Below, in pieces: positions 3,319-53,649 of a stretch of 53,649 bases of DNA. Where the stretch lies: the IMG/VR virus record IMGVR_UViG_3300013094_000065, positions 1-53,649 of that record. The stretch is one strand, 5' to 3'. The position numbers and the translations under genes were made by a program. Every line of letters begins with the position of its first letter. Position 1 is the stretch's first letter. The notes under the pieces were generated by a model that was not told the DNA's origin, made no database searches, and saw nothing but the letters and a program-made list of their open reading frames with translations. This DNA comes from a virus (lineage: Duplodnaviria; Caudoviricetes).

Positions 3319-4520
3319 GTTTATATAAACCCGAAAAGGGCAACGATTTTAGATTCCTTGATAAAATTATCAATGAAGAATTTCAAGTTGGCGGAACTGA
3401 TGTATTTGTTCACAAATATTTAGGCCCTGTTAATCCCACTGATGGAAATGCTACGCCCACTGTGCCAAATACCAATGCAAATCCCATTCCTGAATTGGGA
3501 ATACAAGATGTATTATTAATGGAAAACAGAGATCGCAATTATGATCCAAATGTATACGTAATACGTGGAATTTACACCATGCAGGATTTGGATTTTAATC
3601 TAAGTCAGTTTGGTATGTTCTTGAGTAATGATAATATCTTTATTATGTTTCACTTGGGAACCAGCGTTGCAGCATTGAGTCGTAAACTAATGCCCGGGGA
3701 TGTCATTGAATTACCACATTTAAAAGACGAGTATGGGATGGATGATAGCTTGATAGCATTAAAAAGATTTTATGTTATACAAGATATTAGCCGACCATCG
3801 GCAGGATATAGCCCCACTTGGTATCCACATTTACTTCGTGCTAAATGTGTACCATTGATAGATAGTCAAGAATACAAACAGATTTTTGATGCTGATAGCG
3901 GAAATGGCGACGGAAGCACACTGGGGGATCTATTGAGTAGCTACAATCAAAGTATAGAAATTAACAATCAAATACTTGCCCAAGCAGAGTTAGATGCTCC
4001 GCAGAGTGGATACGATACCACACCGTATTATATATTACCATTAAAAGATAATGGCGATTTGGACGTTGCTGATGTATCTACTACTGACATAGATGTTAGC
4101 ACCGATCAACCTGCGTATGACGCTAGTATCACGTTACACAGTCCGTCGGGAACAATGTATGTGGGGTATCTAACAGGTGATGGATTACCACCAAATGGTG
4201 CCCCGTTTAGCTCTGGTATAACTTTCCCCGGTAGCGCAATTATTGGACAATTTTATCTAAGAACAGATTACTTGCCAAATGTGTTGTACAGATTTGACGG
4301 TACCCATTGGTTAATGTATGAGCAAGATGTTCGAATGACCATGGACAACTTCGGTAATACTGATGTTGCCGCGGGACAGAAATTTTCTGGAAAAGCTGTC
4401 AGAGAAACAGAAAAAACAAGTTTTATTAACAATACTGCCACTGTTACATTAAGTGATGGGCAAGTGTATAACCAACGACAGGCATTGAGTAAGGCACTAA
4501 AACCTAAAGCGGACAATTAA
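3306..4520 (+). CDS. gp14: Neck / head completion protein, probable ATT start
   Basis: In-frame ATT CCT CGA before the TTG at 3315 gives (M)PRLSLYKPEKGNDF; GGAG at 3295-3298; IQDVLLMENRDRNYD, LSQFGMFL and GDVIELPHL are gp14-like. Confidence 0.8.
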   Translation: MPRLSLYKPEKGNDFRFLDKIINEEFQVGGTDVFVHKYLGPVNPTDGNATPTVPNTNANPIPELGIQDVLLMENRDRNYDPNVYVIRGIYTMQDLDFNLSQFGMFLSNDNIFIMFHLGTSVAALSRKLMPGDVIELPHLKDEYGMDDSLIALKRFYVIQDISRPSAGYSPTWYPHLLRAKCVPLIDSQEYKQIFDADSGNGDGSTLGDLLSSYNQSIEINNQILAQAELDAPQSGYDTTPYYILPLKDNGDLDVADVSTTDIDVSTDQPAYDASITLHSPSGTMYVGYLTGDGLPPNGAPFSSGITFPGSAIIGQFYLRTDYLPNVLYRFDGTHWLMYEQDVRMTMDNFGNTDVAAGQKFSGKAVRETEKTSFINNTATVTLSDGQVYNQRQALSKALKPKADN

Positions 4521-40804: not shown

Positions 40805-41725
40805 TTAATTAGTTTGAATGCCAACCTTTGTACTTGTAGCATTAGCCCAACCAAATGCATAACCTACAACGCTGTCGTTAGCGAATTGCCAGCTAGATCC
40901 AGTGCCAGTCTTTCTCCACAAAGATACTTTGTGAGCTGTTAATTTTTGAACAGTATAGCTGTTACCTGCCAAGTCGTTGGCAACAATTTGCATAGTACCC
41001 ACAGTAACTGATGTTGCAGTTGTCAACTTGCATACTCCGCGAGCACTGCCAGTTCCCAAACCGTTTTGATCGTTTTCTACAACATAAGTTCTAGCGCCTT
41101 TTTGTTTTAGTATTGCTGACTTAACTGCGCTTGTTCCACCATTGGCTGCTGGAATCCATGCTGTTGTATAAATTGTACCTGTGTCAGTTTCTGCATGTGT
41201 CAACCCAGTTGTATATGTAAATCCAGAACCTATATCACTAAATGAAACATTTGTTGTAGTGTTTGAAGTGAAATTATATGTACCAGTTACACTTGTAGGG
41301 CCAACAACTGTAACATAGTTGCTACCAGGCATGCCAGGAGACCCATCCATTCTCATACCAACATAAATTCCAGTTGTAGTAATTCCTGAAATTACAGAAG
41401 TTGTTGTGCTTAATGTTGACAATACATTTACAGTTGCCGGTTTGTTAATAGTAACTGTTGGATTAGCATTGTACCCAGCGCCAGTATTACCAATTGCAGC
41501 AGATGAAATAACTCCAGTAGTTGTATTAATTACTAGTGTAACAGTTGCATTAACACCGTCATTTATGTTTGGTGTATTTGGTGCCGAAACTACGGCTGTA
41601 GCACCCTGTGAATAATGTGTACCACCATTGCTTAGTGTGAAAGTAACACCTTCATAGTTGACTGTATCAACAATTGTTTGTGATCCAGTTCTTACAAAAT
41701 ATTTTTTATTAATCGGACGTCCCAT
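40805..41725 (-). CDS. Virion structural protein (possible head decoration), Thr-rich
   Basis: Follows the major capsid gene; has its own TATAAATA promoter, AAGGAG RBS and terminator; GAGYNANPTVTI repeat-type motif. Confidence 0.6.
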   Translation of the reverse strand: MGRPINKKYFVRTGSQTIVDTVNYEGVTFTLSNGGTHYSQGATAVVSAPNTPNINDGVNATVTLVINTTTGVISSAAIGNTGAGYNANPTVTINKPATVNVLSTLSTTTSVISGITTTGIYVGMRMDGSPGMPGSNYVTVVGPTSVTGTYNFTSNTTTNVSFSDIGSGFTYTTGLTHAETDTGTIYTTAWIPAANGGTSAVKSAILKQKGARTYVVENDQNGLGTGSARGVCKLTTATSVTVGTMQIVANDLAGNSYTVQKLTAHKVSLWRKTGTGSSWQFANDSVVGYAFGWANATSTKVGIQTN

Positions 41726-41810
41726 TTTATTTCTCCTTAATTATTAGAACCGTTCTATGGCCTACGCGGATGGATTACCGCATAAACTCTCATTTAAGAG
41801 TGAACATTTA

Positions 41811-41883: not shown

Positions 41884-43062
41884 TTATTGGAAACTTACGT
41901 TTGCGCTAGTGATAGCAACTTTACCTAAGTAGTCAGCTGCATTACCTAGAGAAGAAGCAGTGTTGCTTAATTCTACGTAACCGTAACGTGTTAGGAAGCC
42001 AACTACTGGCTCAAATGTTGCTGGATCTAGAACAACACCAGAACTCATTAAAGGAATATATGGGCAATAGAACGCTGCAGCATCTGCTTCGCTAGAACCT
42101 TTATATCCAACCAATACTTGGTTGATGTCTTGTCCTGTGTCGCTCATGTAAGCGTCAACATAAACACGCATAGCGCCATTCAATGTACCAACAAACTTGG
42201 TGTTTGTAGGAGCTTCAAATGTACCTTCTGTTGTACGAGCAAAAGCGCTTGTAGTAGCAGATTGCAGAATTGTCAATGCTTGATTAGAAACAACAGCCCA
42301 GTTACCTGCGCCACGACGTGTACGTTGAGCAATCAAGTTAGCTGTGCGGTTGATTTGAATAGCTAATGCAGCATGTTCGTCACCAACGAAAGTAGCTGTA
42401 CCAGAAACTAAACTTTGATCGTATGTTTGTTCAACACTTGCCAAGCTACGTAGGCTAGCTAGGATTTCTTGATCAATTTCAGTTGTGATTTCTTGTGCTA
42501 AAGCAGCCATGATTTCTGCTTCGATGTCAATGCCTTGTTGGCTTTGTGCATCTTGTGCAGCTTCAAAAGTCCAGCGAGCGCTTAGTTTACGTGACTTAGC
42601 TTCTACTGGGCTCTTTAAGATTTGGATACTCATACGCTTGCCTGGTTGACCCTCAAGCAAACTTGTTGTTGAAGCACCAGGTGTAGTATCAGTATTGTTA
42701 CCGCTATAAGCACTAGCAATCTTGAACGGACTCAATGCTTCCTCACCTGCTGTAACGTTATCGCCAGAATCAGCATAACGAACACGCAATGTGTGGATTT
42801 GGCCAACTGGACCAGTCATTGGTTGTACACCAATGATTTCGTTGGCAATAACTGTAGGCATTACACGACGGATAACAGGTAGAATAACACGGTTAAGTGT
42901 TGCTACGTTACCAGCACTTGTTGCACCAGCAGTTGCGCTCTCAGCCAAATACTTGCGAGTGTTTTCTAAGCAAACTTGCATAGAAGCACGACGAGTACCA
43001 GATAGGCCTTCAAGCAGAGCTTCTTTGGTCTCTGACCATCTTTCATTTAATAGTTGTGACAT
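41884..43062 (-). CDS. gp23: Major capsid protein
   Basis: IIGVQPMTGPVGQI, VEAKSRKLSARWTFEAAQD, EITTEIDQE, FYCPYIPL and TRYG are gp23 motifs. Confidence 0.97.
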   Translation of the reverse strand: MSQLLNERWSETKEALLEGLSGTRRASMQVCLENTRKYLAESATAGATSAGNVATLNRVILPVIRRVMPTVIANEIIGVQPMTGPVGQIHTLRVRYADSGDNVTAGEEALSPFKIASAYSGNNTDTTPGASTTSLLEGQPGKRMSIQILKSPVEAKSRKLSARWTFEAAQDAQSQQGIDIEAEIMAALAQEITTEIDQEILASLRSLASVEQTYDQSLVSGTATFVGDEHAALAIQINRTANLIAQRTRRGAGNWAVVSNQALTILQSATTSAFARTTEGTFEAPTNTKFVGTLNGAMRVYVDAYMSDTGQDINQVLVGYKGSSEADAAAFYCPYIPLMSSGVVLDPATFEPVVGFLTRYGYVELSNTASSLGNAADYLGKVAITSANVSFQ

Positions 43063-51601: not shown

Positions 51602-52528
51602 TTAAAGTTTTATTTTCAAGAAACGGCTAAATCCTATATCGTTTTCATCAATTGATGCTGATTCAACTGTTGGGATTTTTGCGTCAATTACGGCCAACCC
51701 ATCTTTTATTTGTTTACGCCCAGTGGCATTCAATTTACTATAAAAGTTAATGACCGATTGTACAGTTAATTGAGTAGACACTCCGGCACCGGATCTACTA
51801 CCACCTTGATTACCCGATGATGCTGTATTCCTGTTTGTTGCACCGCCGTTAGCATTATTACCCGATGATGCTGTATTCCTGTTTGTTGCACCGCCGTTAG
51901 CATTATCCAGTTCAGCAACCGAAGCTGAAATAATTTGCCCAACCATCTTGTTATCTAAAGGAATATCCTGTTCCGCATCTTCTCTAACTGTTTGAAAAGT
52001 TGGATTACCCTGTGCGTCAGCGCCTGTCATTTTTTGTACAGGAATGCCAACTTTTGAATTTTTATACCCGTTGGGGTTATTTTTTAGTCTAGCAGTACCA
52101 CTCAGAGTTTTTTGTTTAGCGGCTGCAATTTGTGCCGGGGTTAGTTTTCCACCAGGGGCAGGAGTTGCCGGTGTTTGAACCGCTGATGATTTTATTTGAT
52201 TGATTAATTTCTCTACTCCGCCAGTCAATGGCAAGTTCTGAGACTGCATCCAAGCGGTTAATATACCTAGAGTAGCATCCTTTCCTCCCTGGCTACTACC
52301 TAAATAAGTTTGAAATTTTTTCATTAACTCATTTGCTTGTTTACCTGTTTGTGAAATCCCTTGGGCTCTTGCACGAGTATTAACGTTAGTAAATGGATTA
52401 ATTCGAGTTATCCCAGTTTTCACCCGTTGACCTAAGCTGTGTGGTACATCTCCCGTGGTACTAGCATTTGCCGCATTAAGATCTAATTCATTTAAATTAA
52501 AATCTTCCATAATATCAGATAATTTCAT
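51602..52528 (-). CDS. Hypothetical late protein (possible internal head protein)
   Basis: MKLSDIME start, AAGGA RBS, TATAAATA promoter upstream. Confidence 0.65.
   Translation of the reverse strand: MKLSDIMEDFNLNELDLNAANASTTGDVPHSLGQRVKTGITRINPFTNVNTRARAQGISQTGKQANELMKKFQTYLGSSQGGKDATLGILTAWMQSQNLPLTGGVEKLINQIKSSAVQTPATPAPGGKLTPAQIAAAKQKTLSGTARLKNNPNGYKNSKVGIPVQKMTGADAQGNPTFQTVREDAEQDIPLDNKMVGQIISASVAELDNANGGATNRNTASSGNNANGGATNRNTASSGNQGGSRSGAGVSTQLTVQSVINFYSKLNATGRKQIKDGLAVIDAKIPTVESASIDENDIGFSRFLKIKL
51809..51906. repeat. Perfect 48-bp tandem duplication (NANGGATNRNTASSGN x2)
   Basis: Two identical in-frame copies. Confidence 0.9.
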
Positions 52529-52553
52529 CGAGCAATCCTTTTTTACTATAAGT

Positions 52554-52561
52554 TATTTATA
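52554..52561 (-). promoter_or_regulatory. T4 late promoter TATAAATA
   Basis: Exact consensus 26 nt upstream of the ATG at 52528. Confidence 0.8.
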
Positions 52562-52566
52562 TATTG

Positions 52567-53050
52567 AATTGAGCTAAAGCTCAATTGCTTCTACGCTATC
52601 GCTTGAAGCAACTTTTTATTTTGAAATTAATGATCAATTACGAAGTAAGTAATTCATGTAGATTGTTACAGTCAGACGGAACCATTTTACAGGTTCCATC
52701 TTTATGTCTTCATGTGAGTTGCACACAGCCAAGACTTTGGAAGTAGGTATTTTTTATTCACCGTATGCTAATGGGCTCTGACCTTTCCCATCCTACGTCG
52801 ACATCGCAGAATTATTCTGCTATCTTAAACTTCGTTCCTAGTGTTTAAGTTTTTATAGCCGGTGATTTCGTATGTTAACATTCATACTATAACAATGCGT
52901 CGAGCTTATGGTTCTACTCTCAAACTCACTTCCAATTTTTCAGGATACTGGATTCCTCCAGGGGAGTGCATTATTACGTTACGTGTCCGGTTATTCCCCG
53001 GTTTTTCCACAGCGGTATTACAAACTGGCCCGCCAACCTTGGGTGTTAAT
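52567..53050 (-). ncRNA. Candidate large structured non-coding RNA (family not recognised)
   Basis: Only long non-coding gap in the window; more than 12 stems found by eye, nested multiloops, two possible pseudoknots; G-U wobbles favour the - strand. Confidence 0.65.
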
Positions 53051-53082
53051 TGATTTTTTAATTATATGTGAGTCGTGATTTA

Positions 53083-53511
53083 TTAAATTTTGCCTTTTAT
53101 ATGTGATTGGTGTATTCTGCAACTTATCTGCCCGTTGTAATACTCATCTGATTCTAATACTTTTCTTTCAAATTGGGTTCTAGCTTCTATATAGGTACAT
53201 TCACTTTTACTTTTGCAATAAAATAATATTTCGCGTTTAAAATTTTCTGTGCCTAAAAGCGCAATGTCCTTACTAAGTTCATCGCTCGAACCATAATATG
53301 TTTGCCAATCGCTGTCTATTTTGCTTCTAATCTTTTTCTTTTTCTTTGTGCCGTTCTTTAACTTTACAGTCTTGTAGGTCGTTTTACTAAATTTTGCTAA
53401 TTTTTTGCCTATATATTTTCTATCATTGGTTGTGTTTACTATACAGTAAACATAACCAACACAATCTTCTGGGAGTTCGGTTACTATTTCACCTTTGTAG
53501 TACCAACTCAT
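53083..53511 (-). CDS. Minimal GIY-YIG family nuclease-like protein
   Basis: GYVY...YIGKK motif, YYGSS, conserved E in TYIE, YYN; no appended DNA-binding domain. Confidence 0.8.
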   Translation of the reverse strand: MSWYYKGEIVTELPEDCVGYVYCIVNTTNDRKYIGKKLAKFSKTTYKTVKLKNGTKKKKKIRSKIDSDWQTYYGSSDELSKDIALLGTENFKREILFYCKSKSECTYIEARTQFERKVLESDEYYNGQISCRIHQSHIKGKI

Positions 53512-53649
53512 TGTACACCCTTTTTAATAGAAGATCTACCGAGTTTCCATCCTTCGCCTGGGCATTCTCTACTTTTTATAGAGATGCTATCCTTACTCCA
53601 CCATTTATTTCCTATAGTAGCACCTGTTCTTTTTGCAATAACTTCGGCA
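53508..53649 (-). CDS. C-terminal end of a probable homing endonuclease (partial)
   Basis: AEVIAKRTGATIGNKWWSKDSISIKSRECPGEGWKLGRSSIKKGVQ*; KWW...ECPGEGW-x-LGR is a typical homing endonuclease tail; ATGA overlap with the next gene. Confidence 0.6.
   Translation of the reverse strand, partial: AEVIAKRTGATIGNKWWSKDSISIKSRECPGEGWKLGRSSIKKGVQ

Follow-up and report, generated by a model that had tools for sequence, protein, structure and literature searches.

What occupies the 554 nt between two genes of a tailed phage, where no credible open reading frame (ORF) is to be found? The DNA analysed here, called the window throughout, is a complete virus record of IMG/VR (IMGVR_UViG_3300013094_000065; Duplodnaviria, Caudoviricetes; 53,649 bases, with an estimated completeness of 15% for the record), and the gene-free gap lies at positions 52529-53082. 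A first-pass annotation, made from the sequence alone, had proposed that the minus strand of the gap encodes a functional RNA of about 450-500 nt, possibly of a new class. Here we report that the minus strand of 52567-53050 specifies a non-coding RNA of about 440-485 nt with a conserved and intricate fold that is absent from Rfam 15. Its base pairing is maintained by strong compensatory variation across a family of at least 117 distinct homologues, drawn from about 190 IMG/VR contigs, and we regard a real, selected RNA structure as virtually certain.

Homologues and covariation

Relatives of the RNA were reached through the proteins encoded around it. The first syntenic locus, found via a 797-aa neighbour protein, has only the last 75 nt of the gap in common with the window (89% identity) and bears the Rfam family Polynucleobacter-1 in its place (86.5 bits), and relatives of the 308-aa protein encoded downstream led to no confirmed locus. 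Alignment of a baseplate-hub-like protein gave 562 relatives and, from these, 80 syntenic loci, nine of which (five of them distinct) carry the full-length RNA region at 80-88% identity. A 26-nt pattern taken from the alignment of those nine loci matched 69 viral stretches, which together with the earlier loci make 78 loci, 75 of them complete, and 45 distinct sequences including the window; this set is 65-85% identical to the window.

A second pattern, placed at the 5' end without overlap with the first, matched at least 120 further stretches. Among the matches listed, 78 are complete and 72 distinct; the 26-mer occurs in none of them, and all 72 align with the family profile over nearly its full length. 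Counts given below for 117 sequences or 164 loci include this second set, taken among the matches listed. Pairwise identity among the 117 sequences has a median of 0.68, and 132 of the 488 window positions are at least 95% conserved, a figure that is in part forced by the use of two search patterns. Conservation begins at about 53048-53050 on the 5' side and the core extends to about 52636, after which an A-rich linker and two hairpins lead to 52567.

The single sequence folds only modestly better than shuffled versions of itself: the minimum free energy (MFE) is -129.9 kcal/mol for the minus strand (z -2.97 against shuffles) and -133.2 for the plus strand (z -2.44). It is the comparative evidence that is decisive. 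From the 45 sequences RNAalifold predicts 68 pairs, and compensatory double changes occur at 34 of these. Our curated model, assembled from a column-pair scan and a local test of the long-range helix, has 71 pairs in 15 helices; in the 45 sequences 99.0% of its 3100 cells are canonical, compared with 89.7±0.3% after shuffling (0 of 500 shuffles as high), and double changes fall at 40 pairs, compared with 21.0±2.1 (again 0 of 500), amounting to 263 double-change cells against 53 in shuffles. When the partners were instead slid by one to three columns, only 33-40% of cells paired and 5-11 pairs showed double changes. The independent set of 72 sequences repeats the result, with 92.0% of cells canonical and double changes at 36 of 70 pairs (slid controls 28-38% and 8-12 pairs). 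Collecting homologues and examining their covariation, the course that the first-pass annotation had recommended, thus bears out its proposal of a functional RNA.

The same alignments identify the strand. Pairs are kept as G·U in 760 cells and as A·C in 99, and the RNA is therefore the window's minus strand, as had been argued beforehand from pairs that are G-U only on that strand.

The family is found almost only in uncultured aquatic phages, mostly myoviruses with T4-like structural genes. Searched in 185,579 bacterial and archaeal species genomes, the 5' pattern occurred only in two short contigs of Flavobacteriales metagenome-assembled genomes, too few to name a host. Three DNA runs labelled lake water or metagenome contain 0.91-0.94 of the window's sampled words and may include the source sample. 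The covariance model R1, built on the central domain, had no match in five cultured phage genomes, a blank that by itself shows nothing.

Architecture of the fold

The RNA is described here 5' to 3', that is, along the minus strand from high to low coordinates. It consists of a 5' domain (helices Pa to Ph), a central domain bounded by a closing helix and containing two pseudoknot helices, and a 3' module.

The 5' domain opens with hairpin Pa (UGGCGG/CCGCUG, 53010-53035), whose conserved loop begins GCCAG; four of its six pairs show double changes and 100% of its cells are paired. In Pb (CCGG/CCGG, 52987-53001) all four pairs covary, the outer one being GC in 47 and CG in 25 sequences of the independent set. 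A long helix of the curated model, Pc (52977-68 with 52898-89, spanning 52889-52977), encloses Pd (52967-64/52927-24), Pe (52961-57/52951-48), Pf (52945-43/52933-31) and Pg (52919-16/52905-02). Of these, Pe is the hairpin with a GNRA loop that was noticed in the single sequence at 52948-52961, and four of its five pairs have double changes. Only 16-18 of the independent 72 sequences have letters at Pe to Pg, and 49 have them at Pd, so that the Pd-Pg sub-domain is optional or replaced. Hairpin Ph (GUAUG/CAUAC, 52870-52887) is invariant in the first set because it lies within the search pattern; in the independent set it covaries (AU 48/UA 19/GU 5 and UG 38/AU 19/CG 10).

The central domain is closed by a 10-bp long-range helix between UCACCG plus GCUA (52856-52865) and UAGC, a 3-nt bulge and CGGUGA (52758-52770). 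A helix of at least 4 bp is present here in all 45 sequences, in 15 variants. The first-pass annotation had recognised the pairing of 52860-65 with 52758-63 and offered it as a pseudoknot; the helix holds, but because it is stacked on GCUA/UAGC (52859-56 with 52770-67) it is a nested closing helix and no pseudoknot. Within it stands hairpin Pj (CUUAAAC/GUUUAAG, 52824-52849), another stem seen in advance, which covaries at all seven pairs and displays a near-invariant UAGGAACGA in its loop. A variable hairpin follows at 52803-52822, where insertions occur and the alignments were judged by eye; a hairpin had been predicted at 52806-52820, and one is indeed present, though neither its sequence nor its length is conserved.

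In one relative (L209) the variable hairpin holds an inserted palindromic repeat of about 47 nt, made of two copies of a ATACGGTnTAGCGTAT-like unit (L209:6440-6490). This repeat was the sole match when family members were compared with cultured phages by blastn, and no RNA was hit. Further copies of it lie in an intergenic gap of roseophages DS-1410Ws-06 and RD-1410Ws-07 and within the transfer RNA (tRNA) cluster of Caulobacter phage CcrBL9 (its further coordinates are L269:1501-1547 and L270:1501-1545); the repeat may be a small element that is mobile or binds a protein.

The core of the central domain, at 52772-52799, is a pseudoknot in which Pk (GAC 52799-97 with GUC 52782-80, three of three pairs covarying) crosses Pm (UGGG 52790-87 with CCCA 52775-72, double changes at two of four pairs); both are confirmed in the independent set. 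A further helix, Pl, joins GUAGG (52796-92) to CCUAC (52747-43), with double changes at three of five pairs, 100% of cells paired, and variants such as AUAAG/CUUAU and GCAGG/CCUGC. Since its 3' strand lies outside the closing helix, this pairing reaches across that helix and forms a second pseudoknot. The proposal that 52743-52796 forms a stem enclosing UGGG/CCCA is therefore upheld in both its parts. The pseudoknot helices that covary, Pk and Pl, are other than the two that had been suggested: the second of those, 52777-82 with 52671-76, is unsupported, as 52780-82 pair with 52797-99. Two more early proposals, 52853-58 with 52887-92 and 52798-802 with 52899-903, likewise lack support, and helices that compete with them covary.

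The 3' module comprises a hairpin, the near-invariant GUUCCGUCUGAC, two identical copies of a motif of 8-10 nt, and then two hairpins. Its first element, hairpin Pr (GUCUU..GUGUG/CACAU..AAGAC, 52706-52735), comes from the MFE fold and the motif table, its pairing being read by eye, and its 3' strand contains the first motif copy (52708-52718). Hairpin Po (AUGGAACC/GGUUCCGU, 52699-76) and the adjoining GUUCCGUCUGAC together occupy 52671-52699. This is the stem previously placed at 52674-52701; its innermost pair is CG in 66 and UA in 5 sequences of the independent set, and 52682-52671 is at least 95% conserved. The second motif copy, UCUACAUGAAU (52652-52662 in the motif table of 117 sequences), adjoins a small optional hairpin with a CUUCG loop (52636-52654), which, counted from 3 bp of stem upwards, occurs in 36 of the 117 sequences with 16 different stems.

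The conserved region ends in two adjacent hairpins without a U-tract (52611-52585 and 52586-52567), both of which had been noted from the sequence. The terminal hairpins and the TATAAATA octamer (52567-52621) are 86-89% identical between phages whose neighbour proteins are 44-75% identical, and the first hairpin bears a GAGCG..AGCGA motif in 94 of 117 sequences. These conserved elements may be a protein-binding or processing signal.

The two motif copies in the 3' module are under an unusual constraint that calls for explanation: across the 117 sequences they change together as identical copies and not as complements, in at least five variants (CACAUGAA/UACAUGAA, CGCAUAAU/UGCAUAAU and CACAGAAA/UACAGAAA, for example). 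A second linked change joins distant parts of the fold, the GGAAC of the Pj loop becoming GGGAC in four of four sequences in which the 3' strand of Po reads GGUCCC, and in none of the other 113. Both patterns suggest alternative pairings, or two sites for one ligand.

Some candidate pairings were not taken into the model. RNAalifold also proposes a closing helix AGGU/ACCU (53039-36 with 52748-45), which was left out because it is invariant, hence untestable, and competes with the covarying GUAGG/CCUAC. Loop-loop or kissing pairings, such as GCCAG with UUGGC, were inconsistent between members when compared by eye.

A second RNA in the same slot

In five syntenic loci of relatives, the place of the RNA is taken by a match to the Rfam family Polynucleobacter-1 (RF01718), at 86.5-93.1 bits (gathering score 37). 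The gap of about 440 nt in which this motif lies is conserved from end to end in 55 complete loci (39 distinct; L007:4275-4730 is one of the 55), and it contains covarying helices beyond the 141-nt Rfam model: L007 4462-4468 pairs with 4487-4493 with double changes at seven of seven pairs, and the equivalent of the first terminal hairpin has them at four of six. Rfam's 141-nt Polynucleobacter-1 motif, listed for Burkholderiales and for fresh water and estuary (Weinberg et al. 2010, PMC2864571), is merely the 5' part of an RNA of about 440 nt.

The two RNAs, here called Polynucleobacter-1-type and window-type, share their setting and their 3' end. Each has a small gene for a GIY-YIG protein on its upstream side, and the two hairpins and a late promoter follow it; the position downstream of the GIY-YIG gene is an observation of the present analysis and lies outside the Rfam definition. 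They have the 3' module in common, terminal hairpins included, and the duplicated motif stands at the same two places, reading GGAUAAU at both in the Polynucleobacter-1-type RNA. An nhmmer profile of the Polynucleobacter-1-type region matches 22 of the 45 window-type sequences at E-values of 2e-15 to 1e-4, and all 22 matches are confined to profile positions of about 285-440, which are the 3' module.

The rest of the two molecules differs. The 5' and central domains of the window RNA (about 330 nt) match neither the Rfam model of Polynucleobacter-1 nor the Polynucleobacter-1-type profile. A covariance model of the window-type central domain, which scores 120.8 bits on the window, matches none of 29 Polynucleobacter-1-type loci at E≤10, and the Rfam model in turn finds neither the window nor 20 member loci at gathering scores, and nothing in 52300-53300 when the threshold is eased to E≤10. 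Some likeness can be found by eye, namely a loop starting GCCA or GGCC and a CUAUCC-loop-GGA hairpin in the junction, without statistical support.

Two different large RNAs thus occupy one slot with a single 3' module in common. As only the 3' module is alike in both, it is probably a common working or processing platform, on which the 5' and central domains are probably interchangeable heads. Two unrelated heads on one 3' module amount to a natural domain swap, and so give a handle on which part of the molecule does what; and Polynucleobacter-1, an orphan since 2010, can now be seen as the head of an RNA of about 440 nt. The window RNA represents a new family of large structured RNAs carried by aquatic phages; its slot and 3' module make it the sister of the Polynucleobacter-1-containing RNA.

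The locus and its expression

The window encodes T4-type structural proteins, among them a portal (PF07230, E 7e-106), a major head protein and the baseplate-hub-like protein; its portal is nearest to those of cultured jumbo myoviruses, at 48-50% identity. On the minus strand, the gene upstream of the RNA (53083-53511) encodes a 142-aa GIY-YIG protein of the SegE type (PF19835, E 1.3e-32, residues 3-129; phrog_447), which consists of the GIY-YIG domain alone. The downstream gene, also on the minus strand (51602-52528, with its start at 52528), encodes the 308-aa protein. Between the RNA and this gene, in the flank outside the RNA, the octamer TATAAATA can be read directly from the minus strand at 52554-52561 and is kept in relatives; at 52561-52554 it fits the T4-type late promoter consensus, presumably serving the 308-aa gene.

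Upstream synteny is strong. Among the 164 window-type loci with at least 500 nt of upstream sequence, 145 have a GIY-YIG ORF on the same strand within 1.2 kb, directly adjacent in 97, while 19 have the RNA without it; in Polynucleobacter-1-type loci the ORF is present in 52 of 52 and adjacent in 50. Where at least 3 kb of upstream sequence is available (62 distinct loci), the GIY-YIG gene occurs together with a gp46-like gene in 52, both are missing in 10, and neither occurs alone in any. The link between RNA and GIY-YIG gene is best read as synteny, because the latter is never found without the gp46-like gene. In 25 distinct loci a protein of about 90 aa (92 aa; for example L023:6037-6315, minus strand) is encoded between the GIY-YIG gene and the RNA. 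Neither Pfam nor PHROG has a match for its family, which shows an HxxH...CxxC pattern, and in 19 of 45 loci its ORF reaches 12 nt into the RNA's conserved 5' end, where the stop codon lies. The genes downstream of the RNA vary widely between loci.

The GIY-YIG family itself (phrog_447) is single-copy in 325 cultured phages, which are T4-like cyanophages and other aquatic or soil myoviruses, and no long non-coding stretch follows the gene in the three cultured phages examined. Many cultured-phage records call the protein "NAD synthetase", which looks like a propagated annotation error.

No promoter of the RNA's own is apparent. The minus strand of the region has no sigma-70 consensus for it, and -10-like hexamers are not enriched upstream of the RNA (32 of 114, compared with 30.3±3.9 in shuffles); a perfect TATAAT at 53066-53061 lacks a -35 partner and is not kept in relatives. 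At the other end, the two hairpins have no U-tract and are followed by UUCAAUAUAUAAAUA, unlike an intrinsic terminator, in which a run of U comes after a G+C-rich stem. RNA libraries contain only small shares of the window's words. Four RNA libraries, from four studies, have contigs that span parts of the 5' domain of relatives with a likeness of at least 80%; at 80% likeness the cover falls on parts of 52832-53048 and on the GIY-YIG gene, and the uncovered parts are uninformative. We view these contigs as a weak hint of transcription.

Three further features of the window may be recorded. In the 308-aa late protein a unit of about 16 residues, NANGGATNRNTASSGN, is tandemly duplicated in two copies (about 51800-51940, minus strand). 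At the contig end, a truncated ORF upstream of the GIY-YIG gene (53508-53648, minus strand) overlaps the GIY-YIG start; it is unlike the 65-aa gene that holds the same place in 58 other distinct loci, and the upstream context of the window may be rearranged. Elsewhere in the window Rfam 15 gives one match only, a freshwater-2 RNA (RF02980) at 41723-41801 on the minus strand, scoring 61.8 bits against a gathering score of 49.9; the major head protein gene (41884-43062) lies to one side of it and a 306-aa gene (40805-41725) to the other.

Possible functions

We favour, with moderate confidence, a reading in which an early or middle operon yields the RNA as its tail and the RNA then acts in trans as a stable folded particle. 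On the narrower question of whether it is a particle acting in trans or an element acting in cis, we consider the balance even. According to the favoured reading, the RNA would have no promoter of its own and would be transcribed as the tail of an early or middle unit that includes the gp46-like gene and ends with the GIY-YIG gene; the transcript would end at or near the two hairpins, just ahead of the late promoter of the next gene; and the RNA would persist as a compact folded particle, serving in trans as a protein scaffold or decoy or as a self-assembling RNA. The 3' module would serve both RNAs as a platform for work or processing, with the 5' and central domains swapped on it as heads. 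Because the downstream genes vary and the usual upstream genes are missing from 10 of the 62 loci, the RNA does not appear to regulate any single neighbour in cis.

Several points weigh against this proposal or limit it. The case for action in trans is reached only by excluding cis roles, and the discrete transcript is a predicted one. The evidence from RNA libraries consists of assembled contigs, which are mute on the ends, strand and level of a transcript and may come from contaminating DNA, the neighbouring GIY-YIG gene being covered too. On the minus strand of 52400-53250 there is no terminator consensus or terminator-like site, and, as the hairpins also lack a U-tract, the 3' end of the RNA is not fixed. 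Exact patterns served to collect both sets of homologues, which forces conservation on the columns of those patterns, and the shuffle control for covariation ignores phylogeny, which the slid control keeps. In cultured phages, blastn with the window RNA and two divergent members found no RNA homologue; the RNA is absent from cultured phages, and experiments therefore do not speak to it. Lastly, the duplicated motifs hint at a switch, and a static scaffold leaves them unexplained.

The main rival to a trans-acting particle is a cis-acting end-piece of a 3' untranslated region, which would protect the upstream messenger RNAs from 3' exonucleases, insulate or gate read-through into the late genes, or do both; the duplicated motifs would supply alternative pairings. 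The RNA's place fits well, since it closes a string of genes on the same strand and two hairpins with a late promoter come directly after it, as does the lack of its own promoter. Motif pairs that change as identical copies are what mutually exclusive pairings might produce, and the GGGAC loop that accompanies GGUCCC in four of four sequences, and never in the other 113, points the same way. Yet about 450 nt with at least 15 helices and two pseudoknots far exceeds the needs of known stabilisers and terminators, the genes on either side are not constant (GIY-YIG and gp46-like genes both missing from 10 of 62 loci, downstream genes varying), and a U-tract terminator is lacking. We judge this explanation unlikely, though by no means negligible.

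A bolder idea is that the RNA is a subunit of a new phage ribonucleoprotein or RNA-only machine, its specificity set by the duplicated 8-10-nt motif, which at present we would call a long shot. Were it true, the motif copies could be twin guide-like or recognition elements that direct the GIY-YIG nuclease or another factor to a matching nucleic acid; alternatively, they could form both arms of a switch between conformations of an RNA as large as a ribozyme. Another suggestion, which has a slim chance of being correct, makes the RNA a partner (guide, targeting scaffold or inhibitor) of the GIY-YIG nuclease, an enzyme without a DNA-binding domain of its own, as its Pfam domain spans residues 3-129 of 142. 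The nuclease gene often precedes the RNA on its strand, namely in 145 of 164 window-type and in all 52 Polynucleobacter-1-type loci (97 and 50 of them adjacent), and this is consistent with such a partnership, for which RAGATH-18 and the IS607 TnpB provide a precedent (PMC11061315). Synteny, however, explains the link, given that the GIY-YIG gene keeps company with the gp46-like gene in 52 of 62 loci and both are gone from the other 10; the RNA does without the nuclease gene in 19 of 164 loci, and the nuclease does without the RNA in cultured phages, where blastn found none and no long non-coding stretch followed the gene in any of the three examined among the 325.

We consider it very improbable that the RNA is a ribozyme or a mobile intron-like element travelling with a homing endonuclease. 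Its size and complexity are within the range of large ribozymes, a gene of the homing-endonuclease type adjoins it, and in 19 of 45 loci the ORF of about 90 aa ends 12 nt inside its conserved 5' end. Against this, no group I or II intron and no ribozyme model matches at E≤10 in three members, and the flanks, which differ between loci and on the 3' side consist of hairpins and a promoter, are not those of a split gene; in most loci, moreover, the family is resident in one syntenic slot.

Less credible still is an element acting at the level of DNA, such as a replication origin or a packaging or recombination site, even though direct repeats flank a hairpin, the region lies at a boundary between gene modules, and both strands fold about equally well in silico. 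The helices are kept through G·U pairs, which on the other strand are A·C mismatches, and the compensatory changes at 40 of 71 pairs extend to long-range and pseudoknot helices, none of which would be required of a DNA site; the presence of relatives in RNA libraries adds weakly to this. A decayed or very short protein-coding region is the least likely of all: ORFs of 32-63 aa can be drawn, but there is no coding signal, the longest stop-free stretch having a median of 48 aa in the 117 sequences, gap runs are mostly not multiples of three (3498, 810 and 1003 runs with lengths of 1, 2 and 0 modulo 3), and conservation tracks base pairing and not codons. A sponge of the CsrA type, which several conserved GGA motifs might recall, was set aside because the fold is far more elaborate than that of known sponges.

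Comparison with known RNAs

No Rfam 15 model matches the RNA region, or 20 member loci totalling 110 kb, at gathering scores. Relaxing the threshold to E≤10 in three members brings only unrelated sub-threshold matches that differ from member to member; in 52300-53300 of the window the sole match is lysM-Prevotella, at 19.6 bits against a cut-off of 66.6, which is chance level. RNase P RNA, 6S RNA and signal recognition particle RNA are among the families without a match in the region, and ARAGORN finds no tRNA or transfer-messenger RNA (tmRNA) genes in the window. The opinion of the first-pass annotation that this is no tRNA, tmRNA, RNase P RNA or intron is thereby sustained, as is its suggestion of a new class.

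Structured intergenic RNA candidates have been reported from IMG/VR before (Fremin et al. 2023, PMC10690425). They come from the same source and are backed by the same kind of covariation evidence as the window RNA; their lengths, given there as 29-151 nt with a mean of 67, are far from that of the window RNA, and fragments of it may be among them. Full-text literature searches found no description of the RNA, and very probably it has not been described as a whole before.

In its arrangement the RNA resembles HEARO and the omega-RNA-type guides of IscB and TnpB, where likewise a small nuclease gene adjoins a large structured RNA; here the two occur together in most loci. The RAGATH-18 motif, once an orphan, proved to be the guide of the nuclease encoded upstream of it, an IS607 TnpB (PMC11061315). 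Unlike in those systems, the nuclease is of the GIY-YIG and not the RuvC or HNH kind, no variable guide segment was identified in the RNA, and Rfam gives no match to them. The co-occurrence is, in addition, not independent of synteny, and the nuclease family is present in cultured phages in which no RNA homologue was found.

The first-pass annotation had placed the RNA in the size class of ROOL and GOLLD, RNAs for which RNA-only assembly into homo-oligomers is a known property (cryo-electron microscopy, PMC12286853). Like them, the window RNA is several hundred nucleotides long, associated with phages, rich in covarying helices and without coding capacity. The likeness is one of size and complexity alone: the Rfam models of ROOL and GOLLD match neither the window nor the member loci, no homology having been found, and the carriers of the window RNA, aquatic myoviruses with T4-like structural genes, are unlike the hosts and phages of ROOL and GOLLD.

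Very few bacterial or phage RNAs of such size and complexity are known, and earlier finds such as RNase P RNA, the group I and II introns, OLE, GOLLD, ROOL and HEARO/omega-RNA turned out to be ribozymes, guides or self-assembling particles. The family described here already supports a dependable secondary structure, given its more than 40 covarying pairs and a membership of at least 117 distinct sequences, and it makes a good target for cryo-electron microscopy and biochemistry.

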